Of a stretch of DNA of 64,000 bases, positions 3,379-53,560 are shown one piece after another. The notes beneath the pieces are model-generated. The model saw only the letters and a program-made list of their open reading frames with translations, did no database searches and had not been told where the DNA came from. Made by a program: the position numbers and the translations under genes. The DNA comes from Patescibacteria group bacterium. GTDB taxonomy: Bacteria > Patescibacteriota > UBA1384 > UBA12157 > JAENIV01. Location of the stretch: positions 400 through 64,399 of the forward strand of contig JAMCZU010000032.1 in NCBI GenBank assembly GCA_023485405.1, read 5' to 3'. Every line of letters starts with the position of its first letter. Position 1 is the first letter of the stretch.

Positions 3379-3413
3379 TTCTCCTCCTTAATGTAATTAT
3401 AACAGATTTGAAA

Positions 3414-3444
3414 CCACTCCGACACCTCGTAGGTGTCGGAGTGG
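3414..3444. repeat. REP1 hairpin copy 2: ccactccgacacct-cgt-aggtgtcggagtgg followed by tggttag tail
   Basis: 14-bp perfect stem; shares the agtggtggttag tail with copy 3. Confidence 0.8.
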
Positions 3445-3456
3445 TGGTTAGAGTCC

Positions 3457-4141: not shown

Positions 4142-4176
4142 TCCGACACCTCGTAGGTGTCGGAGTGGTGGTTAGG
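4142..4176. repeat. REP1 hairpin copy 3 with agtggtggttagg tail
   Basis: tccgacacct-cgt-aggtgtcgga with the same tail as copy 2. Confidence 0.8.
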
Positions 4177-12560: not shown

Positions 12561-13172
12561 CTACTCTGACCAGAGATATGCACCGGAAGTATAAAGAGAA
12601 ACTGTTTTACTAGTGGGTGCTGCCGGATCATATATCTCACGAATAGAGGTAGAATTACAAGCATCACTTGGGCCAGTACCACAAATGGTTTCCATTTGAA
12701 GATTGGCTTTTAATTTATATTCCTTACCATCACTCGCATACGCATAGCAACCATGAAAATCTAAATCATTTGTATACTGTTGATTATTAGACGCAGGTAC
12801 CCCTTTTGGATCTTGAGGTAAAACTGAAATAAAATCAGGCGCCAAGTTTGGTATCCAACCGGTACTTCCTGAACTTGTAAGACCCGGTGGATTACTTTGG
12901 TTATAAGTTCGACAGAGTCCGCCCCAAGAAACACCAGGCGATAATAATACTCCGCTAACTTTAACACCAACGTTGCCGCTACTTATTGGGTAGCTACCAT
13001 TTTTATCATTATATTGCTCGAGTGCTCCTTGGAGTGACCTTAAATTTGCAATTCTTTTGGCATCACGAGCAGTTTTACGAGAATTGTTAACATTAACAAT
13101 CACGAGCGACGCTAAAAGACCAATAATAAACATCACTACCAAGAGTTCAATTAGAGTAAAACCCTTTTTCAT
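12561..13172 (-). CDS. type IV pilin (prepilin N-terminal methylation motif)
   Basis: MKKGFTLIELLVVMFIIGLLASL. Confidence 0.8.
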   Translation of the reverse strand: MKKGFTLIELLVVMFIIGLLASLVIVNVNNSRKTARDAKRIANLRSLQGALEQYNDKNGSYPISSGNVGVKVSGVLLSPGVSWGGLCRTYNQSNPPGLTSSGSTGWIPNLAPDFISVLPQDPKGVPASNNQQYTNDLDFHGCYAYASDGKEYKLKANLQMETICGTGPSDACNSTSIREIYDPAAPTSKTVSLYTSGAYLWSE

Positions 13173-13223
13173 AAGCCTCCTTTTAATAACTTAATTTAAG
13201 TATAAAAATAATAGTATTATATG

Positions 13224-13352
13224 TCAAATTTCTAAATCCAAATTTCTAATTTCTAATAAAATGTCCAATGATGCAATGTCTAATATCAAAACTTTTGGAC
13301 ATTGAGATTTTGACATTTGGATTTTTATTTGTCATTAGATATTAGGATTTTG
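13224..13352. repeat. AT-rich MITE-like element, copy A (~129 bp)
   Basis: shares the 5' end aaatttcta..ctaaatcc/aaatttctaatttctaataaaatg and the 3' end cattag..attaggattttg with copies at 14267 and 24881; ends are mutually inverted (ctaaatcctaat / attaggattt). Confidence 0.7.
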
Positions 13353-14261
13353 TTATTTACTGATCATCTCTCTTAATCTCTTTATTCTCTCCCCAACCGG
13401 TGGATGAGTGTCAAAAAGCCCGACCAGCCAGCCCCTTTTCTCATCTTTTTTAAAAGGACTTTCAATGTAAAGATGAGCAGTCGCTTTGTTGGCCACCTCT
13501 AGTGGTTCAGGATCTTGGGAAATTTTTTCCAAGGCCGAAGCTAGGCCTTCAGGATAACGAGTCAGTAATGCTCCCGTGGCGTCAGCTAAAAATTCACGCT
13601 TTCGGGAAATGGCTAACTGAATTAGAGTCGCCGCGATTGGCGCTAAAATGGCCATCACAATGGCTACAATAAAAAGAATCAGTTGAATTTGGCCACCACC
13701 GTCACTATCAGACCGGCGCCGACCGCCGCCAAACCATGTCCAGCGAAGAAAAAAATCAGAAAGCAAAGTGACCACTCCTACTAAAACCACCACGATCGTC
13801 ATTAACCTAATATCATAATTGCCCACGTGAGACATTTCATGGGCAATTACTCCTTCTAATTCCGTCTTATTAAGTTTTTCAAGGAGCCCGGAGGTCACCG
13901 CCAATGCCGCATGTTTTGGGTCACGGCCGGTGGCAAAAGCGTTCGGCGCACCGTCTTGGATTAAATAAATTCGTGGCTTGGGGAGCCCTGCCGTAATGCT
14001 TAAATTTTCAACGACGCGATGAAGCTCTAAAAACGGTTCCTTGCGTGGTACTTCTTTTGCCCCCGAAATTGCCAAAGTGATCGAATCAGAATAATAATAA
14101 GAAACCAAGGCTTGAATGGTGGCAAATAAAACGGCGATAACCAAAATCAATTGGTTGTTAAAATACCAAGAAAGCAAGTAACCCAAACCAATTACAAAAA
14201 CAAGAAAGACGAATATTAATAAAACTGTCCTCCTTTTATTCGAGTCTATTTCTTTATACAT
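13353..14261 (-). CDS. htpX: HtpX-family M48 zinc metalloprotease
   Basis: HEMSHV zinc-binding motif, multiple TM segments. Confidence 0.9.
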   Translation of the reverse strand: MYKEIDSNKRRTVLLIFVFLVFVIGLGYLLSWYFNNQLILVIAVLFATIQALVSYYYSDSITLAISGAKEVPRKEPFLELHRVVENLSITAGLPKPRIYLIQDGAPNAFATGRDPKHAALAVTSGLLEKLNKTELEGVIAHEMSHVGNYDIRLMTIVVVLVGVVTLLSDFFLRWTWFGGGRRRSDSDGGGQIQLILFIVAIVMAILAPIAATLIQLAISRKREFLADATGALLTRYPEGLASALEKISQDPEPLEVANKATAHLYIESPFKKDEKRGWLVGLFDTHPPVGERIKRLREMISK

Positions 14262-14266
14262 AATCT

Positions 14267-14392
14267 AAAAATTTCTAAGCCCTAAATCCTAATTTCTAAT
14301 AAAATGCCCAATGACTAAATTTCAAATTTTTGACATTTAATATTTGACATTTGAAATTTTATTAGACATTTGTTATTAGGATTTTGGATTTA
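14267..14392. repeat. AT-rich MITE-like element, copy B (~126 bp)
   Basis: aaatttctaagccctaaatcctaatttctaataaaatg ... ttaggattttggatttag; fills the htpX-lemA intergenic space exactly. Confidence 0.7.
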
Positions 14393-14941
14393 GAATTTTA
14401 CCTGTGGGGTTTCTTTTTCGGCTTCATTCATCCCAAATAACTCAAACTCTTTCGAACCAGTCATCCCCGCGACCATACTGTTGGGAAAAACTTGAATCTT
14501 GGTGTTAAAGTCACGGACATTGCCATTGTAAAAACGACGAGCTGCTTCGATTTTGTTTTCAGTATCAGTTAATTCGTCTTGCAGTTTTTGAAAATTCTCC
14601 GTTGCTCGAAGTTGAGGATAGTTCTCTGCTACCGCAAAAAGAGATTTCAAAGTATCGGTTAAAGCATTTTCCGCCTTACCTGCTTCTTCAGCTCCTTTAG
14701 CTTGCATTGCTTGCGAACGTGCTTCAGTTACTTTTTCAAAAACTTCTTTTTCGTGAGTAGCATAACCTTTAACTGTCTCAACTAAATTAGGAATTAAATC
14801 ATGACGACGTTTTAATTGCACATCAATGTCTGACCAGGCTTCTTTGGTCCGGTTTCTTAAAGTGACAATGCCATTGAAAACCGCAATAAACCAAATAATC
14901 AAAACTCCAAGTAACCCTAAACCAACCCATAGAATAATCAT
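14390..14941 (-). CDS. lemA: LemA-family protein
   Basis: N-terminal TM plus IVTLRNRTKEAWSDIDVQLKRRHDLIPNLVETVKGY (LemA); conserved LemA-HtpX pairing. Confidence 0.85.
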   Translation of the reverse strand: MIILWVGLGLLGVLIIWFIAVFNGIVTLRNRTKEAWSDIDVQLKRRHDLIPNLVETVKGYATHEKEVFEKVTEARSQAMQAKGAEEAGKAENALTDTLKSLFAVAENYPQLRATENFQKLQDELTDTENKIEAARRFYNGNVRDFNTKIQVFPNSMVAGMTGSKEFELFGMNEAEKETPQVKF

Positions 14942-14954
14942 AAATGCTCCTTTA

Positions 14955-15662
14955 TCACTCCAATGATGAATTTGTTACTTTATATATATTATACGAACCA
15001 GTTAAAGTGCCAGTGGAATCAGATTTGTCTTCCAAAACAGCAGTTAGTTCAAAATTCTGACCATCTGATTTATAACCGTAATAAAATTTTGGGGCTGAAG
15101 GATCGTTTGGCAAACTTTGAAGATATGTTGGCGCTAAGGCTTGGGCTAAAATACTTGTTTGATCGGAAGTTTTAATTTGATCGGTGCTGACGGGATATTC
15201 GGCTTTGACGGCATAATATTTCTTTAAAGCATCTTTAAGATTGGCTAAATCTTTTTTACGGGTTTGGTCATTGATGTTAACTGTTGTCTCAGATGACGAA
15301 CTGGCTGTGGGACTAGCGGTGGGCAGAACCGAAGAAATCGCCGGTGATATTTTAGGCGAAACTGTGGGCGAAGGTACGGGATTGCTACTCTTAAAAATCC
15401 AGCCTTTCCAACGAGCAAAGAATAAGGTACCCACAAACAAAAGAATTAGTAGAAAAATGATGACAATATAAGAAAAAATCGGCTTTTTGGGCCCGGGCAA
15501 AGGCGCATTATTTGGCGATACCGGCGGTGCTGGCATTGATACTGGTGCTGGCTTTTGTTCGCCCGGTTTTTGACCCATCGGCTCGGGCGCGGTGATATTG
15601 GGTGGCATCTCAAAAGGAGCTGGTCCTTCTGAAGATGAAGAATTTATAGTTGGCTGATCCAT
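14955..15662 (-). CDS. proline-rich single-pass membrane protein, unknown function
   Basis: Pro-rich N-terminus, one TM, Ser/Thr/Pro-rich linker and C-terminal globular part. Confidence 0.35.
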   Translation of the reverse strand: MDQPTINSSSSEGPAPFEMPPNITAPEPMGQKPGEQKPAPVSMPAPPVSPNNAPLPGPKKPIFSYIVIIFLLILLFVGTLFFARWKGWIFKSSNPVPSPTVSPKISPAISSVLPTASPTASSSSETTVNINDQTRKKDLANLKDALKKYYAVKAEYPVSTDQIKTSDQTSILAQALAPTYLQSLPNDPSAPKFYYGYKSDGQNFELTAVLEDKSDSTGTLTGSYNIYKVTNSSLE

Positions 15663-15748
15663 TTTTCCCCTCCCTAAATCCAGTTCTTTCAGAACTGGAT
15701 CGGGCGGCCCGCTTTTAGCGGGCTTAGCCTTTTACATTTATTATTGTA

Positions 15749-16030
15749 TCACTTTTTAGCTAATAATTCTGCTTTTCTTTTTTTGGCAATTTTTTGTTTT
15801 TCTGCTTGTTCGGCTTTTTTAGTTTCTTTAATTTTAGTTTTTTCTTCTTTTTCCTGTTTTTTATTTTTCATTTCAGCTAAAATCTCTTTTGCTTCTGGTG
15901 AATCAATTGAAACAGCCAACTTTTGCGGTAATAAATAATTGCGAGCAAAACCAGATTTAACTTGAACAATTTCCCCTCTTTGGCCTAAATTCTCTACTTC
16001 TTTTAGTAAAATAACTTGCGTATGAAACAT
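15749..16030 (-). CDS. rplI: 50S ribosomal protein L9, N-terminal domain only with Lys-rich tail
   Basis: [35 protein letters not shown] matches the L9 N-domain; the C-domain is replaced by [14 protein letters not shown]... Confidence 0.55.
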
Positions 16031-17230
16031 TTATTTTCCTGCCTCTTCTAGCGCTTTATCCAATTGTGGATCAAGGTTTTGAGATTGATCAGTTTCTGTT
16101 CGATCAACTTCAATATTAGGCTTAATTCCCTCTTTGTCAATGGTTCGGTCGTTAGGCGTCAGCCATTTGGCAATCGTTAGTTTTAAAACTGCCGAAGTAT
16201 CAAGATTTTGAAGTTCTTGAACAGAGCCTTTACCAAAAGTTTTTTTACCAATTAAAGTGGCACCGCGAAGATCTTGTAAGGCACCGGCCACAATTTCGGA
16301 GGCCGAAGCTGAACCCTCGTTGACCAAAACAATCACTTTATAATCTTTCAAAATTGGCTCGAAAGTTGTTTTTAACTCATCTTTATGACCATCTTTATAT
16401 TGCTCTTTAACTACCACTGAACCCTTTGGCACAAAAAGTGAGGAAACATCAACGGCTGAGTCTAAATAACCACCCGGATTATTACGCAAATCCAGCACGA
16501 TCGCTTTAGGTTTTTTCTGCGCCAATTCAGAAGCTGCTTTTTTAGCTAATTCAGATGTGTCACTACCAAACTGAGTAATTTGAATATAACCAATCTCGCC
16601 CTTCATTTCCCACTTGACCGAACTAACCGTAATTAAACCTCGAGTAATTTTAAATTCCTGAGGTGTTTGAAAACCCTGACGATTGATCAGTAGTGTTACT
16701 TCTGTACCTTTCGCTCCACGAATTTTCGAAACTGCTTCATCGAGCGATAAGTTAGATATATCCTTGCCATCAATCCCTAAAATTTGATCTTGAGCCTTAA
16801 GCCCAGCTTTTTCAGCCGGTGAATCACCAAGTGGCGCAATTATAATAATTTTCCCATCTTTTTTGGATAATTCCGCCCCAATGCCTTCAAATTTACCAGA
16901 AAGATCTTGTTGTAACGCGGTATTTTCAGTTTGATCCAAAAAATTTGAGTAAGGGTCGCCTAAAGCTTCGGTCATACCTTTAATCGCCCCGTAAACTAAC
17001 TTTTGCGCTGAATATGTCCCGACATATTTATCCGAAATTGTATTCCAAGCTTTCCAAAAAATACCAAAATCAACACTTTCCGGTTTTTTGAGCTCTAAAT
17101 TAGTAATTGTCGGCTTATAATTGGTCCCTAAAATTAAATTTTTATGACCAATTAAATAACCAGTAAAATAAAAAATGATCGCGATCCAAAGAACACCGAC
17201 GATGATAAGAATTTTTTTGAGATTTTTCAA
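16031..17230 (-). CDS. ctpA: carboxy-terminal processing protease (S41) with PDZ domain
   Basis: PDZ segment GIGAELSKKDGKIIIIAPLGDSPAEKAGL; S41 core LVNEGSASASEIVAGALQDLRGATLIGKKTFGKGSVQ. Confidence 0.9.
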   Translation of the reverse strand: MKNLKKILIIVGVLWIAIIFYFTGYLIGHKNLILGTNYKPTITNLELKKPESVDFGIFWKAWNTISDKYVGTYSAQKLVYGAIKGMTEALGDPYSNFLDQTENTALQQDLSGKFEGIGAELSKKDGKIIIIAPLGDSPAEKAGLKAQDQILGIDGKDISNLSLDEAVSKIRGAKGTEVTLLINRQGFQTPQEFKITRGLITVSSVKWEMKGEIGYIQITQFGSDTSELAKKAASELAQKKPKAIVLDLRNNPGGYLDSAVDVSSLFVPKGSVVVKEQYKDGHKDELKTTFEPILKDYKVIVLVNEGSASASEIVAGALQDLRGATLIGKKTFGKGSVQELQNLDTSAVLKLTIAKWLTPNDRTIDKEGIKPNIEVDRTETDQSQNLDPQLDKALEEAGK

Positions 17231-17240
17231 ATTCCTCTCC

Positions 17241-18371
17241 TTAATTTATTATTCCCCCACCTAAAACTTCTTCTCCTTTGTAAAAAACAATTGATTGACC
17301 GGGTGTAACCGCTCGTTGGGGCTTTTTAAATGTTACCTTAACTTGATTATTGTTTATAATTTTCAGCTTACAATTTTCTGCCGGATGACCGTAACGAATT
17401 TTTGCTTTAATATCGCTATAAGGTTTACTCAACCAATTTAAATCAGTAGCAATTAATTCTTTTTGCATTAAATCTTTCTCATCACCAACAATGAGAGTGT
17501 TCGTCTGACTATCCAATTTTACCACAAAGTAAGCTTTTGGGCCACCTAAACCTAAACGCTCTCGTTGACCAATAGTATAATCAATTAAACCACTATGTTG
17601 ACCTAAAATATTACCCTCAACATCAGTAATCACGCCTGGCTTAGTCAACTTTTTAGTGTGACGTCGTAAAAAAGTACAAATATCTCTGTTGGGGATAAAA
17701 CAAATACCTTGAGATTCTCGTCGCTCGGCTGTCGGCAATCCCCATTTTTTAGCCATTTTTCTAATGTCTGGTTTTGAATAATCACCTACCGGAAAAAGAA
17801 TATGTTTTAAATGTTCTTGCTTTAACATCCAGAGAAAATAAGTCTGATCTTTGGCTTTGTCTACAGCCGTGAGTAGTTTATATTTAACATTAGGATTTTG
17901 ACATTTAGATTTTTGTTTGTCATTTGAAATTTGGATTTTGCCATTTTCACTTCCAATGCGGGCATAATGTCCGGTCGCAAGGTAGTCCGCTTTCATCTCC
18001 AAAGTTTTTTTCAACAGTATTTCTCCTTTAATATCGCGGTTGCAAACCACGCACGGATTTGGCGTTCGACCATTTTCGTGTTCTTTAATATAGTAGTCAA
18101 CGACGCTTTTTTTAAATTCTTCTTCAAAATTGACGACATAAAAAGGAATGTTTAATTTGGCCGCTACGGCGCGCGCCGCCGTTGCCGCCTCCAATGAACA
18201 ACAAACATTTTCTCTCACTAAATCAGTTTGAGAAGTTTCTTCCGACCAAAGTTTCATAAAAATTCCAATTACCTCGTAACCTTGTTTTTGAAGGAGGGCG
18301 GCTGCCACTGACGAATCCACCCCGCCCGACATTGCACAAACCACCGCTTTATTTTTCATATTTTTTACCAT
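17241..18371 (-). CDS. mnmA: tRNA-specific 2-thiouridylase
   Basis: PP-loop AVVCAMSGGVDSSVAA; carries a ~17-aa in-frame insertion encoded by a MITE-like fragment (17890-17942). Confidence 0.9.
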   Translation of the reverse strand: MVKNMKNKAVVCAMSGGVDSSVAAALLQKQGYEVIGIFMKLWSEETSQTDLVRENVCCSLEAATAARAVAAKLNIPFYVVNFEEEFKKSVVDYYIKEHENGRTPNPCVVCNRDIKGEILLKKTLEMKADYLATGHYARIGSENGKIQISNDKQKSKCQNPNVKYKLLTAVDKAKDQTYFLWMLKQEHLKHILFPVGDYSKPDIRKMAKKWGLPTAERRESQGICFIPNRDICTFLRRHTKKLTKPGVITDVEGNILGQHSGLIDYTIGQRERLGLGGPKAYFVVKLDSQTNTLIVGDEKDLMQKELIATDLNWLSKPYSDIKAKIRYGHPAENCKLKIINNNQVKVTFKKPQRAVTPGQSIVFYKGEEVLGGGIIN

Positions 18372-18386
18372 AATATAAATAATTTC

Positions 18387-18433
18387 TTACATTCCTAAAC
18401 CTGTTGTCCACCTACGAGGTGGACATTTTGGTT
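18387..18433. repeat. REP2 element copy 1: ttacattcctaaacctgttgtccacct-acg-aggtggacattttggtt
   Basis: palindrome tgtccacct/aggtggaca with the same acg loop core as REP1; overlaps the folD 3' end. Confidence 0.75.
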
Positions 18434-19218
18434 GTCTCAACAATATTTTTCATCAGACAGGCCACTGTCACCGGACCAACGCCACCAGGCACGGGTGAGT
18501 AAGCTTTGATTTTTAAGTAGACCTCGGAATCTACGTCGCCTACTATTTTACCCGCTGCTTCGGAGTTACCAGCATCAATAATAATAGTATCGGCTTTGAC
18601 CATTTCGGGCTTAATTAAAGATGGTACACCAGCAGCGGTGACAATAATATCTGCTTCTAAAGTTTTTGCTTTTAAATCAACTGTTTTTGAATCACAAACT
18701 ACCGGTTTTAAGCCTTGGCCTTGAAGTATTTTCTCTAAAGGTTGCCCCACTAATCGACCATGACCAATAATAACTATTTTTTTGCCCTTGATATTTATTT
18801 TATAAAACTTTAAAATTTCTAAAATCGCCTGAGCCGTTGGTGCCATAAAAGAGCCATAAAATCCATCAACATCTTTTTCTCCTTTAATTTGCTTTAAAAT
18901 TTTCTCTGTTTGAAATTCAGGAGGGAGTGGCAATTGAACGACAATACCACTGATATATTTGTTAACATTTAGCTCACGAATTAATTCGGTCACTTTTTTT
19001 TCTGGCGTAATTCCTGACAAATGAAAAAGCTGAAAACCAAGACCAAGACTTGCCGCTTTTTTTTCCTTAATTTTGATATAACTAACACTTGATGAATCTT
19101 CGCCCACTAAAATGACACCAAGAGTTGGCGCAGTTTTGAGATCTTTTTTAATTTGAAGATAAATATTTTCCGCCACCGGTTTACCAAATAGAATCATTTC
19201 AACCTCTTTACTCAGCAA
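18412..19218 (-). CDS. folD: bifunctional methylene-THF dehydrogenase/cyclohydrolase
   Basis: GKKIVIIGHGRLVGQPL Rossmann motif and DVDGF motif. Confidence 0.9.
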   Translation of the reverse strand: MLSKEVEMILFGKPVAENIYLQIKKDLKTAPTLGVILVGEDSSSVSYIKIKEKKAASLGLGFQLFHLSGITPEKKVTELIRELNVNKYISGIVVQLPLPPEFQTEKILKQIKGEKDVDGFYGSFMAPTAQAILEILKFYKINIKGKKIVIIGHGRLVGQPLEKILQGQGLKPVVCDSKTVDLKAKTLEADIIVTAAGVPSLIKPEMVKADTIIIDAGNSEAAGKIVGDVDSEVYLKIKAYSPVPGGVGPVTVACLMKNIVETTKMSTS

Positions 19219-20155
19219 AATTTTGCGTCACCATTTTGCCATAAACACCGATATCAATAATACCAACACCAATTCGGCCATATTTTGGATCTAAAATATT
19301 ATCACGATGTTTAGGTGAATTCATAAAACCAATTTCCGCCAATTCCTCAGTTGGTGCCAGCGCAATATTTTCGCCAGCCAACCAATAATTTACACCACCT
19401 TCAGTCATTCTATCAGCCGGTGTTTTACTGGCTAAATCAACATGAGAAAAATAACCATTTTTTGCCATATCAATTGAATGAAACCGAGCAACTGTCCGAA
19501 TCGTCAGATCTAATTTTAAAGGCGGAAGACCCACTTTCACCCTTTCATTATTAACCTGATTAATCATGATATTTTCTGAATTTTCATCAATCGTAAATTT
19601 TTCTATTTTAAAATCGAGCTTAATTGTTTCTTCGCTTTGAGAGACGGTGCCAAAAAAGTTTAAAGAGTTAACACCGTCAAAAACTTTTTCCATTTGATTT
19701 TCGGCTTTAGCTGATGATTTAATGAAAAAACCAGAAATAGGAGATTTGACTAAACTATCTTTAAACGCCGGTGAAACAGGTAAGACAAAACAAATCATTA
19801 AAATAATCGCGGCCACAACAATTCCTTTGACTAGACCGGGAATAATGCCAAAAAAACGATTAAATTTATTTTCACCAACCCATAGTGGCACAAAACGAAA
19901 AATCAAAAGAGTAATTAAGTAAAAAATAAGCTGAAATAAAATCCACAGAGTTAGAAAACCAATTGGTTTAGCTAAGTTAGGATTTTGCCCCCAATGAGTA
20001 AAAATTGCAGCTGCCGCGTCAAAATAGTGTAATGACAGAATAAAAGATATTACAATACCAATCAAATCAAGAGTTTGAGACAAAAAACCACGGCGAAACC
20101 CCATCCAACCGTGGAGTATAATAATTAGGATAATCAAGATTTCAATATAAATCAT
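19208..20155 (-). CDS. CvpA-family membrane domain fused to a C-terminal CAP/SCP (YkwD-like) domain
   Basis: four TM helices typical of CvpA; C-terminal ...GYFSHV...GENIA...SPKHRDNIL...GVG... CAP signature. Confidence 0.55.
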   Translation of the reverse strand: MIYIEILIILIIILHGWMGFRRGFLSQTLDLIGIVISFILSLHYFDAAAAIFTHWGQNPNLAKPIGFLTLWILFQLIFYLITLLIFRFVPLWVGENKFNRFFGIIPGLVKGIVVAAIILMICFVLPVSPAFKDSLVKSPISGFFIKSSAKAENQMEKVFDGVNSLNFFGTVSQSEETIKLDFKIEKFTIDENSENIMINQVNNERVKVGLPPLKLDLTIRTVARFHSIDMAKNGYFSHVDLASKTPADRMTEGGVNYWLAGENIALAPTEELAEIGFMNSPKHRDNILDPKYGRIGVGIIDIGVYGKMVTQNFAE

Positions 20156-20179
20156 AGACCCATCATAACAAATTTTTTA

Positions 20180-20584
20180 CTACTGTTTAACCTTCTTTTT
20201 GTAATCGGCAATTGCTTTGACAAGTGCTTCTTCAGCCAAAACCGAACAATGTTGTTTGACCGGCGGTAAACCATCTAAAGATTCGACAATTGTTTGATTG
20301 CTAATTTTTTTAAGCTCTTTTAAGTCTTTGCCCACAATCATATCAGTTAACATTGATGAAGTCGCAATGGCAGCCCCACAACCAAAGGTTTGAAATTTTG
20401 CTTCTTTGATATATTCTTTGCCCGCTTTTTTTTCAACTTTGATTTGAAGTTCCATTAGATCGCCGCAGACAGGATTACCAACTCGACCGCGACCAGATGG
20501 ATTTTTAATCGTCCCCATATTACGAGGATGCGAGAAATGCTCCATCACTTTTTTTGAATAAAGTGAAGATATATTTTTACTCAT
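20180..20584 (-). CDS. iscU: Fe-S cluster scaffold, NifU/IscU N-terminal-domain type
   Basis: three conserved Cys contexts GNPVCGD, FGCGAAIA, KQHCSVLAEEA. Confidence 0.85.
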   Translation of the reverse strand: MSKNISSLYSKKVMEHFSHPRNMGTIKNPSGRGRVGNPVCGDLMELQIKVEKKAGKEYIKEAKFQTFGCGAAIATSSMLTDMIVGKDLKELKKISNQTIVESLDGLPPVKQHCSVLAEEALVKAIADYKKKVKQ

Positions 20585-21783
20585 TTTACTCCTAAAGGAC
20601 TAATTTCCCTTAATCTTTTAATAATTGTTTTTAAATTTGTTATCGTATAATCAATTTCTTCTTTGGTCGTTTTTTCTCCCAAAGTAAAGCGAATTGAGCC
20701 ATGAGAGCGTTCGGCATTATTGTAAGTGGCCATTAAAACATGGGAAGGCTTGAGTGACAACGAAGTGCAAGCCGAACCCGAAGAGGCGGCGATACCAACT
20801 AAGTCTAAACTCAAAAGAATAGATTCACCCTCGACATATTTAAAATAAAAATTGGCATTGTTGGGACTACGAGACTGCCTTGAACCATTAAGCTCAACCT
20901 CGGAGATTTCTTTTAGAACACGATCAATAAAATAATCTCTTAACTTTAATGTTTTTTCGGCTCTTATTTCATATTTCTTATCTCTCAAAACTTCTGTGGC
21001 TTTACCCAAAGCTACAATCCCCGCCACATTTTCCGTCCCCGCACGCAAATTCATCTCTTGTTCACCACCAAAAATAATTTTTCGCAGTGGTACATCCTTT
21101 CGAAAATAAAGCGCGCCAATTCCTTTAGGTGCACCAATTTTATGCCCGGAAATTGTTAAAAGATCAACATGCAAGAAATCAACATTCATTGGCAAATATT
21201 CCGCTGCCTGAACCGCATCGGTATGGAAATAAATTTTGTTTTCTCTTTTCTCGTTTTCTTTCTCAATCATTTTACCAATTTCACGAATAGGTTGGATAAC
21301 ACCAATTTCATTATTAACATATATGACGGAGGCTAAAACTGTATTTTTTTTGACTGCTTTTTTAACTTGTTCTTTTGTAATAAGTCCTTCTTTATTGGGT
21401 TTTAAATAGGTTATTTCGGCCAAATTATTTTTTTCTAAATATTCGCAAGTTCTTAAAATCGCATAATGTTCAATTGCACTAGTGATAATATGTGGTTTAG
21501 AATTTGAAATTTGAAATTTGCCTTTAGCAGACCAATTTGAAATTCCTCGCACAGCAAGATTATCCGCTTCCGTTCCACCAGAGGTAAAAATAATTTCTTC
21601 TGGCTTACTATTTAAAAATTCTGCTACTTGAGTGCGTGCTTTTTCAACCGCTGTTCTAGCAACTTGACCCCAACTATGAATACTTGAAGGATTACCAAAA
21701 TTATTTTCCAAAAAAGGTAAGAGTGCTTTTTTAACCTCATTTTTCACCGGACTGGTAGCTGAATAATCAAGATAAACTTTCAT
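20581..21783 (-). CDS. iscS: cysteine desulfurase (NifS/IscS class V aminotransferase)
   Basis: PLP-Lys motif SGHKIGAPKGIGALY; catalytic Cys in SSGSACTS. Confidence 0.9.
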   Translation of the reverse strand: MKVYLDYSATSPVKNEVKKALLPFLENNFGNPSSIHSWGQVARTAVEKARTQVAEFLNSKPEEIIFTSGGTEADNLAVRGISNWSAKGKFQISNSKPHIITSAIEHYAILRTCEYLEKNNLAEITYLKPNKEGLITKEQVKKAVKKNTVLASVIYVNNEIGVIQPIREIGKMIEKENEKRENKIYFHTDAVQAAEYLPMNVDFLHVDLLTISGHKIGAPKGIGALYFRKDVPLRKIIFGGEQEMNLRAGTENVAGIVALGKATEVLRDKKYEIRAEKTLKLRDYFIDRVLKEISEVELNGSRQSRSPNNANFYFKYVEGESILLSLDLVGIAASSGSACTSLSLKPSHVLMATYNNAERSHGSIRFTLGEKTTKEEIDYTITNLKTIIKRLREISPLGVK

Positions 21784-21986
21784 TATTTCGCCTTCTTCGC
21801 AATTTTTCTTAAGTCTTCAACGCAACGCTTACATTCACCGCGCAAAGAAAGAAAATCATCGTATGACAAAAGGACGGCGACCGGTTTTGAATAGCGCATG
21901 ACTTCAAAAATTTCACCATTTTGAACTTTTTGAACGACTTCTGAAATATTAGATTGTAGCTCATTGATGTTAATAGTTTGATTCAT
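21783..21986 (-). CDS. Phd/YefM-family antitoxin-like small protein, start/stop-overlapped with iscS
   Basis: EVMRYSKPVAVLLSYDDFLSL matches Phd/YefM; ATGA overlap with the iscS start; no toxin partner follows. Confidence 0.5.
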   Translation of the reverse strand: MNQTININELQSNISEVVQKVQNGEIFEVMRYSKPVAVLLSYDDFLSLRGECKRCVEDLRKIAKKAK

Positions 21987-21994
21987 ATTTTCTC

Positions 21995-22060
21995 CCGGGT
22001 AGTAGAAATTTGATATTTTCTTCGAAAATGCTTTAGCATTATCAAATTTTCACTACCCGG
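21995..22060 (-). promoter_or_regulatory. 66-bp operator-like nested palindrome upstream of phd-iscS-iscU
   Basis: 21-bp arms ccgggtagtagaaatttgata / tatcaaattttcactacccgg enclosing the smaller palindromes tttcgaaa and atgctttagcat; minus-strand TTGACA-18-TATATT promoter ~35 nt upstream. Confidence 0.5.
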
Positions 22061-22096
22061 CTCCACATCTAATATATCATCATATATAACATCTTG

Positions 22097-22282
22097 TCAA
22101 TCACTCAAGGGAGTATTTTGAGAACTGGCTTTTTTAGCCGAATCAGAAAAACTTTTAACGATCCTTTCTACTTTCCAGTAAATAAGTCCTACAAGGCTAA
22201 TTACTACTATTAATATAATAGTAGTAATGATCAAGCCTAAGTATTTCTTCGCCGGCTGGCGAATTTTTTTTTCCTTCTTCAT
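22097..22282 (-). CDS. small single-TM protein, unknown
   Basis: 61 aa, basic N-terminus plus one TM. Confidence 0.3.
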   Translation of the reverse strand: MKKEKKIRQPAKKYLGLIITTIILIVVISLVGLIYWKVERIVKSFSDSAKKASSQNTPLSD

Positions 22283-22356
22283 TATGTTTTTATTGTATCA
22301 AAAAGAATTTATTAAATCTTAATTTACTGATATGATAATAACACCGAAAGGATAAA

Positions 22357-23268
22357 ATGCGTATTTCTTACTCGGCATACGATACTTTTAACCGCTGTCC
22401 CCTTCAATATAAGTTCTCTTATATTGAACAAATTGAACGCCCAGAAAAACCGGAACTTTTTTTTGGCAGTCTGATTCATAAAACTGTCCAGTTTGCCTTA
22501 AAAAAAGATCCTATTTTACCTAAAGAACAAGAATTGATGGATTTTCTTAAAATTAAGTGGCAACCAGAAATCTTTTCTTCTAAAAATGAATCCCAACAAT
22601 ATTTTGAATTCGGCAAAGAAATGATTCGAAAATTCTACGCTGATTGGCAACCGGGACTTAGAAATATTGTGGCGACTGAAAAATATTTTCAAGTTCCCCT
22701 ATCTTCTAAACATATTTTATCTGGTTTAATTGACCGAATCGATAAATTACCATATGGAGCTTTTGAGATCATTGATTATAAAACTAATAAGGCTCTTCCG
22801 ACCCAATTAGAAATAGATACTGACAAACAATTGGCTATCTATAATTTAGCGGTCCAAAGTTTGTGGCCAGAAGCCCAAGATGTGCGATTAACCCTTTATT
22901 TTTTAAAACATAATTTAAAAATTACCACCAAAAGACAACCTTACGAAATTGAACAAATCAAAACTGAAGTTATCAATATCGCTGATAAAATTGAAAACGA
23001 AAAAGAATTTGCTCCAAAAGCTAACAAGTTTTGTGATTGGTGTGATTTTAGACATCTTTGTCCTTTGCAAGAAGGGAAAGTTGAAAATAGAGAACAAAAT
23101 GATGATATTAATAAAATTATCGAAGAATATATTGAAGCCCAACAAAAAATCAAAGATTTAGAACCACAAATTCATCAACATTTTGATTTGGAAAAAATTG
23201 AAGAATTTTCAAATAAAGAAATTACAATCACTAGAGATAAAGATAAAAAAATAATAATTAAAAATTAG
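22357..23268 (+). CDS. PD-(D/E)XK nuclease with Cas4/RecB-like Fe-S Cys cluster
   Basis: N-terminal Cys (RCPLQY), PD-(D/E)XK core (DRID...EIIDYKT), C-terminal CDWCDFRHLCP cluster. Confidence 0.6.
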   Translation: MRISYSAYDTFNRCPLQYKFSYIEQIERPEKPELFFGSLIHKTVQFALKKDPILPKEQELMDFLKIKWQPEIFSSKNESQQYFEFGKEMIRKFYADWQPGLRNIVATEKYFQVPLSSKHILSGLIDRIDKLPYGAFEIIDYKTNKALPTQLEIDTDKQLAIYNLAVQSLWPEAQDVRLTLYFLKHNLKITTKRQPYEIEQIKTEVINIADKIENEKEFAPKANKFCDWCDFRHLCPLQEGKVENREQNDDINKIIEEYIEAQQKIKDLEPQIHQHFDLEKIEEFSNKEITITRDKDKKIIIKN

Positions 23269-24023
23269 ATCTTAAATAACTTCTCAGCATTTTTAGTAGT
23301 TTGTGTTTCTACTTTTTCTAAAGGAATTTTTTTTATTTCAGCGATTTTTTTTGCCACTTCTATTACATAAGTTGGTTCATTTCTTTTACCACGATAAGGT
23401 TCCGGCGTCATATAAGGACAATCGGTTTCAATTAAAATTCTTTCCAATGGTGTTTCTTTTAAAACCTCGATTGTTTTTTGATTTTTGCTAAAAGTAATCA
23501 GGCCGGTAAAAGAAAGATAAAAACCCATTTCTAATACTGCCTGAGCAAATTGCCAATCTTCTTGAAAACAATGCATCACGCCTGAAGGAATTGGACTTTC
23601 GGTCATTAAAATTGGTAAAATGTCTGCCGCTGCTTCTCTTGAATGCACAATAATTGGCTTAGAAACTACTTGGGCCAATTTGATTGATTTTATTAAAACT
23701 TCTTTTTGATTTAACAAGTTAGATTTATCGTAATAATAATCCAAGCCAATCTCGCCAATAGCCACAACTTTTTTATTTTTAGCTAATTTTTGAAAATTTT
23801 CTTCATCAAAAGCTTCATCTTTGACATGAATTGGATGCAAACCCACGGCCGCAAAAACACCCTCAAATTTTTCAGCAATTTCAATCGCTTTAAGTGAAGT
23901 TTTCAAATTCGAACTTGGAATAATAATTTTTTCAACTCCAGCAATTTTAGCTCTCTCAATTACCTGACCGTTGTCGAGCTCAAAAGCTTCGAAGTTTAAA
24001 TGAGCATGAGTATCAATAAACAT
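23265..24023 (-). CDS. tatD: TatD-family metal-dependent DNase/hydrolase
   Basis: MFIDTHAHLNF N-terminus and the conserved His/Glu/Asp ladder. Confidence 0.9.
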   Translation of the reverse strand: MFIDTHAHLNFEAFELDNGQVIERAKIAGVEKIIIPSSNLKTSLKAIEIAEKFEGVFAAVGLHPIHVKDEAFDEENFQKLAKNKKVVAIGEIGLDYYYDKSNLLNQKEVLIKSIKLAQVVSKPIIVHSREAAADILPILMTESPIPSGVMHCFQEDWQFAQAVLEMGFYLSFTGLITFSKNQKTIEVLKETPLERILIETDCPYMTPEPYRGKRNEPTYVIEVAKKIAEIKKIPLEKVETQTTKNAEKLFKI

Positions 24024-24860
24024 TTATTTTCCTACCAACGAAGCATAGACAATACAACCTAAAATTACAATAGCCGAGATAACAGTCCTCAACTTTAATT
24101 TTTCGTGCAAAAAAATGGTTGAACAAATATAAACTAGAATTGGCGATAAGATTAACACCAGTGAGGTATAAACCACCCCAAATTGTTCAAAACCATAAAA
24201 TTTGCTAATCATTTGTAGTGTTCCAAGTGAAGCACTCGCCAAAATTAAAGCCGAGTTTTTCCCGGCCACTTTTTTAATTTGCGGATGATAAAACAAAAAG
24301 AAAAAAATGAAAAGTATGCCTGTTCTAATACAATACAAAGCCACGGGCGAAAAAACTACTAACAAAATTTTAATTAGAATTAACTCCACTGACATAAAAA
24401 GTACGGCTAAAAGTAACTTGTAACCACCAAGTGTTATTTCTAGATGAGCTTTATTAAGATGAGCTACAATAAGAAAAATGGCCGCGATAATAGCAACGAT
24501 TTCAATTTGTAAATTTTGCTCACCTTTAAGAAAAATGGTAGCTAAAAGAATCGTCAGCAAGGGCTGAAACATCATAATCAATTCAAATTCATGAACTTTT
24601 TCCGACTGAACGCCTTGATAATAAAAAATATTCCAAACAGTGGCCGCTATTATCATTGCCAAAAATATTAATAAATAGCGAAGTGAAAAAACCTCAATGG
24701 AAATTTTACCCAAAAATGGGAAAAGCAGAGCCGTTAATAAAAAAAGAAATAAAAACAAAATTGGCACAAAAACATGAACCGAAACTTGCCGACGAGTCAG
24801 AGTGATTTTATCAACCAGAATACCTCCGACCTGAGCTAAAGCCGAAATAAAAGGAAACAT
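24024..24860 (-). CDS. polytopic membrane protein (DMT/EamA-like), unknown substrate
   Basis: ~10 predicted TM helices. Confidence 0.4.
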   Translation of the reverse strand: MFPFISALAQVGGILVDKITLTRRQVSVHVFVPILFLFLFLLTALLFPFLGKISIEVFSLRYLLIFLAMIIAATVWNIFYYQGVQSEKVHEFELIMMFQPLLTILLATIFLKGEQNLQIEIVAIIAAIFLIVAHLNKAHLEITLGGYKLLLAVLFMSVELILIKILLVVFSPVALYCIRTGILFIFFFLFYHPQIKKVAGKNSALILASASLGTLQMISKFYGFEQFGVVYTSLVLILSPILVYICSTIFLHEKLKLRTVISAIVILGCIVYASLVGK

Positions 24861-24880
24861 TAAAAAAACCTCCGGTTTTT

Positions 24881-25001
24881 AAATTTCTAAGCTCTAAATC
24901 CTAATTTCAAATAAAATTTCAAATGATTAAATGTCTAATTTAGATTTTGAAATTTGAATTTGGATATTTTATTTGGCATTAGTCATTAGGATTTTGGATT
25001 T
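24881..25001. repeat. AT-rich MITE-like element, copy C (~121 bp)
   Basis: aaatttctaagctctaaatcctaatttcaaataaaat ... cattagtcattaggattttggattt; abuts the metG stop. Confidence 0.7.
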
Positions 25002-26435
25002 TTATTTGTGTCTGGGAAATAAGTGGTCCGGTTTCATTGATTTAAGTTGATCAATAATTAACCACGAAGTTTCTGGTAAAAATGGATCAATTTGAAAAGC
25101 AATTTGCGAAATTGCTTCCAGTAATTGGCTGATTACTTTTTCAAGTTTTTGGGGATCTTTTTCAAAAAGCTCCCAGGGTTTTTCAGTATCAATTTTTTTA
25201 TTTGCCTCAACCACAATATCCCAAATTAAATCCAAAGCTTTATGAAATTCCAAATTTTCAATCGCGCGATCAATTTGGAAATAAGATTTTGTGATCGTTT
25301 TATATCGCCATGGAACTTTATAACGATTAGCCATCGTAATCACGCGCTGGACTAAATTACCTAAATCATTAGCTAGATCCGAACAATAACGTTTCTCAAA
25401 ACGATCAATCGTAAAATCACCATCTTGACCAAAAGGCATTTCGCGAAAAAGAAAATAACGCAAAGCGTCCACGCCATAAATACGAGAAATTTGGAGTGGA
25501 TCAATAATGTTACCACGGCTTTTTGAAATTTTTTCACCATCAACTGTCAAGAATCCATGAATAAAAATCTTACGCGGTAATTCTAATCCTGCCGCCATCA
25601 ACATTGCTGGCCAAATAATACAATGAAAACGAAAAATATCTTTACCAATTAATTGTAATGATGGTGGCCAATGACCACGTGCACCGGTGATATAATTTAA
25701 AAGGGCATCAACCCAAACATAAATAGTTTGTGTTTTATCCCAAGGTACTGATATGCCCCAACTGACTTTACTACGAGAAATGGCCAAATCTCGCAAAGGT
25801 TCTCTTTTTAAAAAACTTAGAATCTCATTTCTTCTTTCGATTGGTTCAATTTCAATTTTGTTTTTTTCAATTACATCAATAAGTTGATTTTGATATTTTG
25901 AAAGTTTGAAAAAATAAATATTTTCAAAAACACCTTCACATTTTTTTTTATGAATCAAACAAACATTATTCGGACCAAGCTCATTTTTTGTTTTATATTC
26001 CTCACAACCAACACAATACAAACCTTCGTAACGATCTTTGTAAATTTCGTCAAGATCGCACAATTTTTGAACAAAATCCTGAACATATTTTTCATGAGCA
26101 GGATCGGTTGTTCGAATAAAATTATCGTATCGAATCTCTAGTGCCGCCCAGGCTGCTTTGTAATGCAAAGAGACTTCATCAACAAATTCCTTCGGCTTCA
26201 TTCCTCTTTTTTCAGCTGCTTGTATTATTTTTTGACCATGTTCATCGGTTCCCGCCAAATAAAAAGTATCTCGACCACGCCGGCGCCAATAACGAGCTAA
26301 AATATCAGCGGCGATCATTTCGTAAGCATGGCCAATATGAGGAATATCGGAAACATAATGAATGGCGGTCGTAATAAAAAAAGTCTCTTTTTCTTGAGAT
26401 GATTTTTCTGTTTGTGGTGTTGAAATTTCTGCCAT
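25002..26435 (-). CDS. metG: methionyl-tRNA synthetase
   Basis: HIGH motif (HIGHAYEM), KMSKS (KISKSRGN), CxxC zinc knuckles. Confidence 0.95.
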   Translation of the reverse strand: MAEISTPQTEKSSQEKETFFITTAIHYVSDIPHIGHAYEMIAADILARYWRRRGRDTFYLAGTDEHGQKIIQAAEKRGMKPKEFVDEVSLHYKAAWAALEIRYDNFIRTTDPAHEKYVQDFVQKLCDLDEIYKDRYEGLYCVGCEEYKTKNELGPNNVCLIHKKKCEGVFENIYFFKLSKYQNQLIDVIEKNKIEIEPIERRNEILSFLKREPLRDLAISRSKVSWGISVPWDKTQTIYVWVDALLNYITGARGHWPPSLQLIGKDIFRFHCIIWPAMLMAAGLELPRKIFIHGFLTVDGEKISKSRGNIIDPLQISRIYGVDALRYFLFREMPFGQDGDFTIDRFEKRYCSDLANDLGNLVQRVITMANRYKVPWRYKTITKSYFQIDRAIENLEFHKALDLIWDIVVEANKKIDTEKPWELFEKDPQKLEKVISQLLEAISQIAFQIDPFLPETSWLIIDQLKSMKPDHLFPRHK

Positions 26436-28503: not shown

Positions 28504-28548
28504 CTATTACAGTATAAATAAAAAAATCCAAAATCCAAAATCCAAATT

Positions 28549-29343
28549 TCAAAATTGATAGTTTTTAAGAACATTACATAACACGAACCATTGTTTTAAA
28601 GTTAGGTCTTCAGCGCGAAGCGATGGATCGATTTGTGCTTTTTTCAAAATATCAGTCACTTTATCTTTTTCCAATCTTAATGTCGCTGCCAAGGAATTTC
28701 GAATCTGTCGTCGCTTGGCCGAAAAACCAGCTTTGACAATTTGAAAAAACAACTTTGACCCAACCTTATCCGCATACCTGGTATGAGGGTATGGTTGGAG
28801 TTTTAAGATGGCGGCGTCAACTTGGGGTTGGGGGCGGAAACTATTTTTGGACACCGTCATAATAATTTCCGCATTGGCATAAAATTCAACCGCCAAGGTT
28901 AAAATACCCCGCTCCGAATCACCAGGCTTAGCAACGATTTTTTCAGCGACTTCTTTTTGCACCATCACTACCATTAATTCCGGTTGATTTTGGCTTTCTA
29001 AAAATTTCCGGATTAATGGCGAGGCAATATTAAAAGGCAAATTTGAAACGACTTTGTACTTTTTAAAAATTGATAAATCAAAAAAGAGAGCATCTTGATG
29101 AACGATAGTTAAATTTTTATTTTTACCCAACGCCTTACGCAGCATTTCTGCTAATTCAAAATCTTTTTCGATGGCATAAACTTTTGCCCCAGCATCTATT
29201 AACGCTTTGGTTAATATTCCCAAACCCGGCCCAATTTCAATAACAACATCATCCTTTTTAATTTCAGCAACCTTAATAATATCAGGAATGATTTTATCAT
29301 TGATTAAAAAATTTTGTCCCAGAAATTTTTTTTGTTTAAACAT
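28549..29343 (-). CDS. rsmA: 16S rRNA dimethyladenosine transferase
   Basis: FLGQNFLINDKII and EIGPGLGILT motifs. Confidence 0.9.
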   Translation of the reverse strand: MFKQKKFLGQNFLINDKIIPDIIKVAEIKKDDVVIEIGPGLGILTKALIDAGAKVYAIEKDFELAEMLRKALGKNKNLTIVHQDALFFDLSIFKKYKVVSNLPFNIASPLIRKFLESQNQPELMVVMVQKEVAEKIVAKPGDSERGILTLAVEFYANAEIIMTVSKNSFRPQPQVDAAILKLQPYPHTRYADKVGSKLFFQIVKAGFSAKRRQIRNSLAATLRLEKDKVTDILKKAQIDPSLRAEDLTLKQWFVLCNVLKNYQF

Positions 29344-35530: not shown

Positions 35531-35578
35531 TTTACATTCCTAAACCTATTGTCCACCTACGAGGTGGACATTTCGGTT
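35531..35578. repeat. REP2 element copy 2: tttacattcctaaacctattgtccacct-acg-aggtggacatttcggtt
   Basis: near-identical to the copy at 18387; abuts the dnaB stop. Confidence 0.75.
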
Positions 35579-52010: not shown

Positions 52011-52011
52011 T

Positions 52012-53030: not shown

Positions 53031-53037
53031 CTATTTT

Positions 53038-53517: not shown

Positions 53518-53560
53518 ACAAGCAATTGTAAATAATCATAATTTTCGATTATTTAATCAT

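Follow-up and report, generated by a model that had tools for sequence, protein, structure and literature searches.

Palindromic repeats built from seven-nucleotide units between genes, and related arrays within genes, in a Patescibacterium

Introduction

Patescibacteria have among the smallest and densest bacterial genomes; still, a 64-kb stretch of one of them (64,000 nt of contig JAMCZU010000032.1, the whole of which is called the window here) holds four palindromic fillers of about 120 bp between its genes and nine short tandem arrays in frame within genes. This raises the question of what these repeats are and how they came to lie there. An initial annotation of the window had described three copies of an AT-rich element resembling a MITE (a miniature transposable element with inverted repeats), together with a fragment exapted within mnmA. 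This study revealed that the elements consist of two inverted arrays of 7-nt units and that they are recent insertions between genes. Neither the 7-nt periodicity, nor the nine in-frame heptamer arrays, nor a fourth palindromic element (38201-38304) had been noticed before. The elements probably form a family of selfish, non-autonomous palindromic repeats in Patescibacteria, approximately 100-135 bp long, AT-rich and non-coding, comparable to MITEs and to Rickettsia palindromic elements (RPEs). Of greater interest are their 7-nt-periodic construction and the fact that, throughout a phylum, it extends into essential genes. As judged from its MnmA, HtpX and LigA proteins, whose nearest named relatives belong to Candidatus Berkelbacteria, the organism is a Berkelbacteria-like Patescibacterium.

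Intergenic copies and their empty sites

Three full copies of the element were located on the minus strand, as were all the genes around them, and their limits were set from the empty sites of relatives. Copy 1 (13230-13352, 123 nt) is situated between the stop codon of HtpX (13353-13355) and a promoter-like site of a pilin-like gene (12561-13172), and copy 2 (14273-14389, 117 nt) between the stop codon of LemA (14390-14392) and the start codon of HtpX (14261). Copy 3 (24885-25001, 117 nt) lies between the stop codon of MetRS (25002-25004) and the Shine-Dalgarno sequence and start codon (24860) of an EamA transporter gene, both neighbours having been identified by Pfam. Within the window, blastn aligned copies 1 and 2 at 77% identity (E 2e-21), copies 2 and 3 at 81% (E 9e-26) and copies 1 and 3 at 75% (E 1e-17), which confirms the three copies at the places where they had been annotated; the nearest relatives of each window copy are the other two. 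Blastn also aligned each copy with the reverse complement of itself, at about 70-74% identity (E 6e-9 to 7e-8), in agreement with the earlier description of their ends as mutual inverted repeats. The fold prediction that had been suggested as a check, made for the copies as RNA, gave -27.4, -27.4 and -16.4 kcal/mol for copies 1, 2 and 3, respectively (z -3.65, -4.5 and -1.8 against shuffled sequences). With 117-123 nt, a GC content of 22% and stop codons in all frames, the copies have the size, composition, non-coding nature and foldability of MITEs, and with three full copies and one half-copy in 64 kb they are also dispersed as MITEs are.

The elements had been said to fill their gaps exactly. 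This applies to the side of the upstream gene, whose TAA lies 0-2 nt away in all three copies, but not to the side of the downstream gene, whose start codon lies 57, 11 and 24 nt away from copies 1, 2 and 3, respectively. Downstream of copy 1 there is a pre-existing promoter-like site and a Shine-Dalgarno sequence, and downstream of copy 3 there is a GGAGG.

The copies are insertions, as comparison with relatives (given by L numbers) revealed. In L082, a second contig of run SRR22388063 whose HtpX is 95% identical at the amino acid level, the site of copy 1 is empty and reads TAA|ATTTGACA after HtpX, and the window has TAA, then 123 nt, then ATTTGACA. The promoter-like sequence adjoining copy 1 (TTGACA-17-TATACT, scoring 11/12, 13227-13199) is also present at the empty site of L082, and it is therefore older than the insertion. 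The site of copy 2 is empty in L083 (HtpX 85% identical), where the TAA of LemA is followed by 10 nt and the ATG of HtpX; the window has 117 nt extra. Since the LemA-HtpX spacer measures at most 25 nt in about 28 of the 70 genomes that keep this pair, the short junction is the common state, and probably what was there originally. All three copies start, on the plus strand, with AAAT|TTCTAA and end with ...GGAT(TTTG)|TTA, the last triplet being the stop codon, and these junctions fit an insertion at TAA|ATTT-like sites.

A third empty site was found for the segment within mnmA (17885-17953, minus strand), which encodes the peptide ENGKIQISNDKQKSKCQNPNVK and is preceded by AAAT. The closest relative L001, a Logan contig of the same run whose DNA matches that of the window at 86% identity across 5.7 kb, has 15 nt where the mnmA of the window has 69 nt, and the segment is likewise absent from the solved MnmA structures (PDB). 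The segment is 85-87% identical over 54-60 nt to one arm of copy 1 (blastn E 1e-14), and this homology comprises only the A-rich 5' arm. The annotated in-frame insertion is thus real and absent from canonical MnmA, although it amounts to a net 54 nt and 18 residues instead of 17. In an alignment of 30 MnmA proteins (A1), the site of the insert proved to be a hot spot with 0-50 extra residues, of which the nearest relatives have none. In many Patescibacteria MnmA proteins, different repeat-encoded peptides occupy this hot spot (FQISNFKSNPNDK, NDKSKCKN, KQILNSKSQ); conservation of the segment at the protein level across distant taxa, which had been named as a ground for refuting the annotation, was not observed in the form of a homologous stretch. 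In the AlphaFold model of the window MnmA (mean pLDDT, the predicted local distance difference test score, 85), the insert lies between two strands with a pLDDT of 44-57 and no secondary structure, and it is thus modelled as a disordered loop. We found no support for the term exapted: the segment is a lineage-specific insertion at a hypervariable site.

Some MnmA inserts of other Patescibacteria contain peptides such as CHSERSEES (P0021), which have their source in GC-richer hairpin repeats of the kind gtcattccagcgaaagctggaatgac or catcctgagcgaagcgaa. Such repeats also occur in intergenic spacers of these bacteria (L082, 1-41; L057, 60-300; flanks in L108).

Seven-nucleotide architecture

The elements read in sevens (ttCTAAg ccCTAAa tcCTAAt ttCTAAt ... 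aTTAGga tTTAGgg cTTAGaa) and follow a common plan of two inverted arrays of 7-nt units around a variable centre. The A-rich 5' arm consists of four to five CTAAnnn units, shading into units of the CAAA type, and the T/G-rich 3' arm consists of four to five nnnTTAG units, with the consensus ends AAATTTCTAA...TTAGAAATTT. In an alignment of 31 members (A2), the invariant columns are spaced 7 nt apart and spell CTAA (5' arm) and TTAG (3' arm). Tandem Repeats Finder (TRF) reported 15 rows of period-7 tandem arrays with at least three copies in the window, against 0.8 expected from 30 simulated third-order Markov sequences (maximum 4 rows), and of 35 intergenic gaps measuring 45 nt or more, 7 showed strong lag-7 autocorrelation, among them those with the fourth palindromic element and with a half-element (28523-28555). 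Over all loci, there were 59 arrays of period 7, compared with 28 of period 6 and 20 of period 8. The possibility that the elements are simple low-complexity AT sequence, which had been raised beforehand as a ground for dismissing them, is not borne out, the inverted ends being conserved.

The two arms are complementary. Over the 31 members, 81.7% of the cells in the outer 25 positions pair, so that the ends qualify as terminal inverted repeats; this value fell to 77.5% when the letters of the 3' arm were shuffled (none of 500 shuffles reached the observed value) and to at most 51% when the partner was slid by 1-3 columns. Changes on both sides of a pair were found at 12 pairs and in 45 cells (0 of 500 shuffles), for example from CTAA:TTAG to CGAA:TTCG, these pairing figures being counts on a named structure that lean on related sequences and on a sample selected by pattern. 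Arms within one element match each other better than do arms of different elements. RNAalifold predicted no consensus structure from the 31-member alignment because the registers of the arms slip by whole units, and the named structure was therefore counted instead.

This behaviour could be explained if the arms evolve by slippage of units together with correction of one arm by the other, which would preserve their complementarity. Whole-unit slippage would make arrays internally uniform and different between lineages. The correction of quasi-palindromes by template switching, a process reportedly established by the work of Ripley and Lovett, would keep the arms complementary without selection.

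Distribution of the family

A profile of the three copies retrieved full-length relatives near HtpX in another Patescibacterium (L008). A metagenome scan with the pattern AAATCCTAAT-N55-85-ATTAGGATTT returned at least 120 stretches, some of which are chance matches or other elements. An nhmmer profile then delimited the multi-copy family that had been predicted, with 48 elements at E<=1e-5 in 37 sequences including the window, that is, 45 further members on 36 contigs outside it. With regard to placement, 31 of the 48 are flanked by tandem genes, 3 by convergent and 2 by divergent ones, and another 2 overlap open reading frames (ORFs), one of these being the mnmA segment; the remaining 10 abut contig ends. 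The gaps to the flanking ORFs mostly measure 0-20 nt. On one contig (L115), four copies occur within 8.6 kb and fill four of five consecutive spacers. The proposed comparison of insertion sites with gene ends thus yielded a clear predominance of tandem placement, but no terminator role, since the elements contain no terminator-like site.

When unrelated contigs were compared, the alignment was limited to the elements (75-88% identity), the flanks did not align, and the conserved part took in the non-periodic centre CTAATAAAATGTCCAATGACTAAAT. For these reasons the elements are homologous copies and go beyond similar low-complexity DNA. This bears directly on a non-mobile origin, according to which heptanucleotide simple sequence repeats (SSRs) would grow in place by polymerase slippage and become palindromic through intramolecular template switching, so that the likeness between elements would merely reflect preferences for certain units. 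Period 7 dominates everywhere, as such growth would predict, and the same junction or loop can carry different homogeneous units in different lineages (NSKFEIRNSK, NQKSKIKNQN, NPKSETLNPK). In addition, native gene ends resemble proto-arrays, such as GTAAAATTTTAAATTTTAAATC in L083, and heptameric SSRs with inverted pairs exist in Xanthomonas, for which slippage has been invoked (PMC4692102). Growth in place does not, however, account for elements at unrelated loci and on unrelated contigs that are 75-91% identical over about 120 nt, the non-periodic centre included, between flanks that cannot be aligned, nor for complete elements where relatives whose flanking proteins are 85-95% identical have an empty site. 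We therefore consider it decidedly unlikely as the source of the family.

An origin from phages or viruses was examined and rejected: blastn against phage records gave no match, and a scan of viral contigs gave 18 matches to the pattern, none of which is a family member. All 18 are chance hits in coding DNA, as are part of the at least 120 metagenome matches.

The search pattern also caught unrelated repeats accidentally. A family of perfect palindromes (GGTCATCGGAATGC...AAATCCTAATCGGAATC...) was retrieved in this way, as was a highly conserved palindromic repeat of about 140 nt (GGTCATCGGAATGCAAAACGAAATCCTAATCGGAATCATGAAACTATT...GAAAAGAGACC...), of which numerous nearly identical copies lie on short metagenome contigs (Ga01050xx and related ones: L096, L097, L122, L126, L130, L132, L136, L137, L139, L140, L142, L150, L153, L158, L162), some of which also carry long heptamer arrays inside ORFs (TGTGTCG/TGTCATG, 11-17 units).

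Heptamer repeats in other spacers and within genes

Related repeats were found in three further spacers of the window. An (AAAATCC)x4.7 array detected by TRF (28523-28555, plus strand) is a half-element that fills the 45-nt spacer between a KsgA-like gene and an Nramp gene, and on the transcribed strand it reads as the T/G-rich arm. The fourth palindromic element, with a different unit (AACTAAA ... TTTAGTT; 38201-38304, minus strand), occupies the spacer between DnaX and DnaB. A palindromic array of the AATTTTA type (39935-40023), identified by repeat search and TRF, lies in the divergent spacer between DnaX and PilB. The first and the last of these correspond to the related words that had been reported at 28505-28550 and 39946-40030.

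We also identified nine arrays inside long ORFs of the window, all in frame on the coding (minus) strand, in GatA, GatB, LigA, an IscS-like protein, UvrD and DnaX. LigA contains (AATTTCA)x6 (10160-10201), which encodes NFKFQISNFKSISN and constitutes an insertion of about 10 residues relative to Escherichia coli LigA (TRF and PDB alignment), and (TCTCAAA)x4.6 (11303-11334), which encodes NLKSQISNLK, an insertion of 6 residues. Both LigA sites are recurrent hot spots among homologues, with different units per lineage; none of the LigA relatives was closer than 75%. In GatB, one array (6400-6426) encodes AEIRNEKWEI and the other, (TAAGAAA)x4.7 (6676-6708), encodes LEIRNKKEEIRK in a variable loop without net length change relative to Aquifex GatB; EIRNKKEEIRK is among the GatB array peptides. 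GatA has (AAGAATT)x4.6 (7944-7975), which encodes EIKNSELRIKN and adds about 5 residues, and (AATAAGA)x5 (8203-8238), which encodes KEEIRNKKIEIR. Alignment with solved homologues placed the arrays of GatA and GatB over variable loops, with a change in length of 0 to +5 residues. The remaining three arrays are (TTTCAAA)x2.9 in an IscS/NifS-like cysteine desulfurase (21501-21520, KFQISNS), (TTTCAAA)x4.3 in the UvrD/PcrA helicase (34595-34624, ISNSKFQISK) and (TCAGAAT)x4.6 in DnaX (38797-38828, IQNSEFRILN).

As with RPEs, palindromic repeat sequence is thus found in frame within housekeeping ORFs at tolerant sites. A whole element translated into a conserved peptide was not found, however, as mnmA carries the A-rich arm only. 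In the full elements, TAA or TAG recurs every 7 nt and places stop codons in all frames, and whichever frame a heptamer array is read in, the 7-residue peptide is the same. Only stop-free units, and only in the A-rich orientation, would therefore survive within ORFs, since the outer CTAA and TTAG units stop all three frames; this matches the mnmA insert and all in-frame arrays of the window. Stop-free A-rich half-arms or pure heptamer arrays may be pasted or expanded in frame in surface loops, where they would be tolerated as disordered loops.

Two helicase genes of the window contain intein domains. In the UvrD/PcrA gene (31921-34887), Intein_splicing was detected at residues 303-633, and in the DnaB gene (35577-38183), Intein_splicing and a LAGLIDADG domain were detected at residues 398-804.

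Tests of a functional role

Several observations bear on whether the elements serve the genes next to them. The members outside the window have no orientation preference relative to genes (14 versus 14), and the transcribed strand folds no better than the antisense strand (14 of 31 members, Wilcoxon p = 0.38), although a selected mRNA structure should show a strand bias through G-U pairs. The earlier suggestion of a terminator function was not upheld, and neither a terminator-like site nor a conserved promoter was found within the elements, the only good promoter match being the one that abuts copy 1. Rfam yielded no match, either across the window at the gathering threshold or, with the cut-off relaxed to E<=1, across 13100-14500. 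Nothing supports a promoter, a terminator or a strand-specific RNA role.

These results weigh on the notion that the elements are functional cis elements of operon mRNAs, acting either as intercistronic hairpins in processing, stability or translational uncoupling, or as binding arrays for a periodic protein. The placement from stop to start between co-directional genes is extremely regular, the CTAA and TTAG cores are conserved and the arms covary. Moreover, the 3' arm formally has the pattern (UAGNNNN)n, which resembles the binding site of HutP in the hut leader of Bacillus subtilis (UAGNNNNUAGNNNNUAG, PMC2425495) in that UAG recurs every 7 nt, in at least three units, on the transcribed strand. 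The window contains three (TAGN4)x3 sites where 0.13 would be expected, all of them on the transcribed strand inside copies 2 and 3, and the pattern is present in 35 of 45 family members. In contrast to the HutP site, there is no terminator to antagonise, and there would be dozens of sites per genome instead of one leader. Many related elements lack UAG, the units of other lineages being, for example, CGAAATC or ATAACAA, and there is no HutP-like gene among the 59 ORFs of the window that were scanned with Pfam. Since the elements are also absent from the orthologous junctions of close relatives, show no preference for orientation or strand, and have related arrays inside coding regions, a cis-regulatory role is highly improbable.

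A bolder proposal is that the repeats constitute a phylum-wide intercistronic code. CUAA and UUAG cores at every seventh nucleotide may be read by a ring-shaped or filament-forming RNA- or single-stranded-DNA-binding protein analogous to HutP, whose binding may open or close the long hairpin and thereby set the processing or the translational coupling of the neighbouring genes. With regard to origin, the corresponding proposal is a dedicated copying activity in a 7-nt register, distinct from a transposase, which may write the arrays both between genes and into protein loops. We regard both forms of this proposal as very unlikely, and the model of a periodic protein reader in particular is an unlikely one.

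Uptake signal sequences (USS) and DNA uptake sequences (DUS) are found behind genes as inverted pairs and, within genes, in frame where the protein tolerates them. The distribution of the heptamer repeats, as hairpin pairs and in frame, resembles this, and the window encodes type IV pilus genes; the repeats could accordingly be imagined as signals that accumulated in naturally competent Patescibacteria by biased uptake and recombination. The candidate was rejected, as there is no dominant core k-mer and no fixed core of 9-12 nt: the best 8-10-mers are only about 4-18-fold more frequent than expected, with at most 20 copies in 64 kb, all of them within arrays. The elements also add length, which is not how signals born by substitution would arise, and the probability of this explanation is close to negligible.

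Origin and spread of the elements

The MITE-like character that had been proposed holds insofar as the elements are dispersed, AT-rich quasi-palindromes with conserved inverted ends that were inserted at their sites, but neither a clear target-site duplication nor a partner transposase was found. In the strict sense, MITEs would be deletion derivatives of an insertion sequence, moved by a transposase in trans and flanked by a target-site duplication of fixed length. Small size, AT-richness and the conserved inverted ends would all be in keeping with such an origin, as would the multiple copies, the empty sites in relatives and the fact that the window copies are mutually nearest. It is nevertheless a rather unlikely one: no target-site duplication is unambiguous, 2 Mb of sequence yielded no transposase that has these ends, and the ends are unit arrays of variable length, with half-elements and pure arrays occurring as well. 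Conserved 4-bp cores at a 7-bp spacing would also be an odd site for a transposase.

Copying by short homology, that is, template switching or illegitimate recombination between arrays, or else an unidentified enzyme, is favoured over a cut-and-paste transposase. The reasons are that every junction lies on AAAT, which is the unit's core, that the ends are arrays of variable length and that half-elements occur. New copies of these selfish repeats would be pasted into very short A/T-rich sites (TAA|ATTT or ...AAAT|) right after TAA stop codons, and an element would fill a whole gap because the original spacers in such compact genomes measure only about 10-60 nt. If co-transcribed within operons, the elements must form long AU-rich hairpins, and a hairpin of 40-50 bp would be a plausible substrate of RNase III, by analogy with Correia elements.

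Some observations speak against selfish copying. Function, and not selfish spread, could be the reason why the CTAA and TTAG cores and the placement are strongly conserved in genomes that range from 36 to 50% GC. Part of the regularity of alignment A2 is ascertainment, the metagenome members having been found with a pattern that fixes one unit per arm. No transposase with matching ends was found in the window (59 ORFs, Pfam) or next to the elements in the loci examined. At the junctions (AAAT|element|TTA), a duplication of AA or AAAT is inseparable from the repeat unit at the three sites compared, and comparisons of empty and filled sites number only three. Finally, other lineages have quite different heptamer units at the LemA-HtpX junction, which growth in place would fit equally well. 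These elements, which were found without the metagenome pattern, follow the same plan with CGAAATC/GATTTCG (L013), ATAACAA/TTGTTAT (L008) or units of the ATGTTTA type (L011).

The only transposase-like gene of the window is a Y1 (IS200-type) transposase gene (2701-3378, minus strand; Pfam Y1_Tnp E 5e-10) with HUH and RYIxxNP motifs, which resembles the transposases associated with repetitive extragenic palindromic (REP) sequences (RAYTs). It scored 60.6 bits with the NCBIfam model REP_Tyr_transpos, below the cut-off of 80. GC-rich REP-like hairpins (TCCGACACCTCGTAGGTGTCGGAG) were found at 2658-2695, 3413-3453, 4142-4175, 18395-18430 and 35540-35583, the first two of which flank the gene in inverted orientation. 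The gene and the hairpins look like a REP/RAYT system in a Patescibacterium. As a mobiliser of the heptamer elements the RAYT was rejected: this gene and its homologues in L002, L113, L108 and L040 are flanked by their own REP hairpins and not by heptamer elements. Between folD and mnmA lies an inserted variant of the REP-like hairpin that carries a promoter-like tail (GTCCACCTCGTAGGTGGAC...TATATTATGG); L001 lacks it, and there the two genes overlap.

Comparison with known repeats

The heptamer arms tie the elements both to the in-frame 7-nt arrays and to the heptameric SSRs known in other bacteria. Heptameric SSRs have been described in Xanthomonas (GGGAATC) and in Nostoc and Anabaena (GGGGA(C/T)T; the short tandemly repeated repetitive sequences, STRRs, of heterocystous cyanobacteria), where their function is unknown, and Xanthomonas genomes have 70-75 inverted pairs each, near the ends of upstream ORFs (PMC4692102). 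The Patescibacteria repeats share with them the 7-nt unit and its over-representation in tandem, dispersed arrays of a few units, a mostly intergenic location near the 3' end of the upstream ORF between co-directional genes, and, with those of Xanthomonas, the frequent convergent pairs that form inverted repeats and an intragenic minority (PMC4692102). The shape of the unit is also similar, with a short run of G, an A and a run of T (GGATTTn in the elements). In contrast, they are AT-rich, with units such as AAATCCn and AAATTTC that have at most 2-3 G, lack the G-rich unit and any G-quadruplex, and belong to a different phylum; their two arrays and centre make up a discrete element of about 120 bp that was copied between loci at 75-91% identity, and their arrays are common in frame in essential genes.

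To our knowledge, no 7-nt substructure exists in RPEs. These are selfish palindromic repeats inserted in frame in housekeeping genes (Ogata et al. 2000/2002, summarised in PMC10969869), and like them the present elements are palindromic repeats of approximately 100-150 bp in a reduced genome, located between genes and, with fold-compatible peptides, in frame. Unlike RPEs, which are inserted whole and encode a conserved peptide, the repeats within Patescibacteria ORFs are the stop-free A-rich arm or pure arrays, and we claim no sequence relationship between the two.

Correia elements and neisserial miniature insertion sequences (NEMIS) in Neisseria and enterobacterial repetitive intergenic consensus (ERIC) elements in enterobacteria are likewise short and non-autonomous, with inverted ends, intergenic positions in operons, presence/absence polymorphism and long hairpins in mRNA, which are subject to RNase III cleavage in Correia elements and to exposure of RNase E sites in ERIC elements (PMC10969869). 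Correia elements differ in having a TA duplication, promoters and integration host factor (IHF) sites, none of which was found in the heptamer elements, and in not ending in unit arrays of variable length. REPs and bacterial interspersed mosaic elements (BIMEs) are also extragenic palindromes located after genes; REPs, however, are GC-rich, 20-40 bp long and flank a RAYT, whereas the heptamer elements are about 120 bp long, AT-rich and periodic, and flank no RAYT in the loci examined. PARCEL repeats (PMC2996958) are 25-residue tandem domains in surface proteins and were set aside as a different thing.

[quoted passage not shown] If the findings are general, they would explain many of the odd low-complexity inserts (FQISNFK, EIRNSKF, NPKSQ) and the variation in protein and spacer length in the CPR, and gene callers may be misled by the repeats. 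They would also provide a tractable case of heptanucleotide over-representation in bacteria, a question left by Xanthomonas and Nostoc, and a second independent example, after RPEs, of selfish palindromes that remodel housekeeping proteins in reduced genomes. The repeats may further contribute to contig breaks in metagenome-assembled genomes, given the 10 of 48 elements that abut contig ends; L082, the one contig inspected for this, ends inside a different repeat, a REP-like hairpin.

Other features of the window

Near the start of the window there is an inverted repeat of 148 nt (319-466 and 550-697), 98% complementary with an 83-nt spacer, that consists of EF-Ts coding sequence. The start of the contig is probably close, and the repeat seems to be an artefact of assembly, snap-back or chimeric, and not biology. 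The region 51930-55442 contains a run of small paralogous genes, most of them without a Pfam match, which share a conserved 3' end (plus strand TTACAACTCTTCGGCTTCTTTGG, corresponding to a C-terminus ...KEAEEL-stop) and resemble one another in their upstream spacers (repeat families D5 and D6). The ORF of a type IV pilus ATPase (T2SSE/PilB) (40116-41990, plus strand) starts with a full HU-type DNA-binding domain (Bac_DNA_binding, residues 1-90) in the same frame, which is either a real fusion or the result of a mechanical ORF call with a TTG start that merged two genes. Finally, a Phd/YefM antitoxin gene and a PIN-domain gene (21783-21986 and 51158-51586) represent toxin-antitoxin components among the housekeeping genes.

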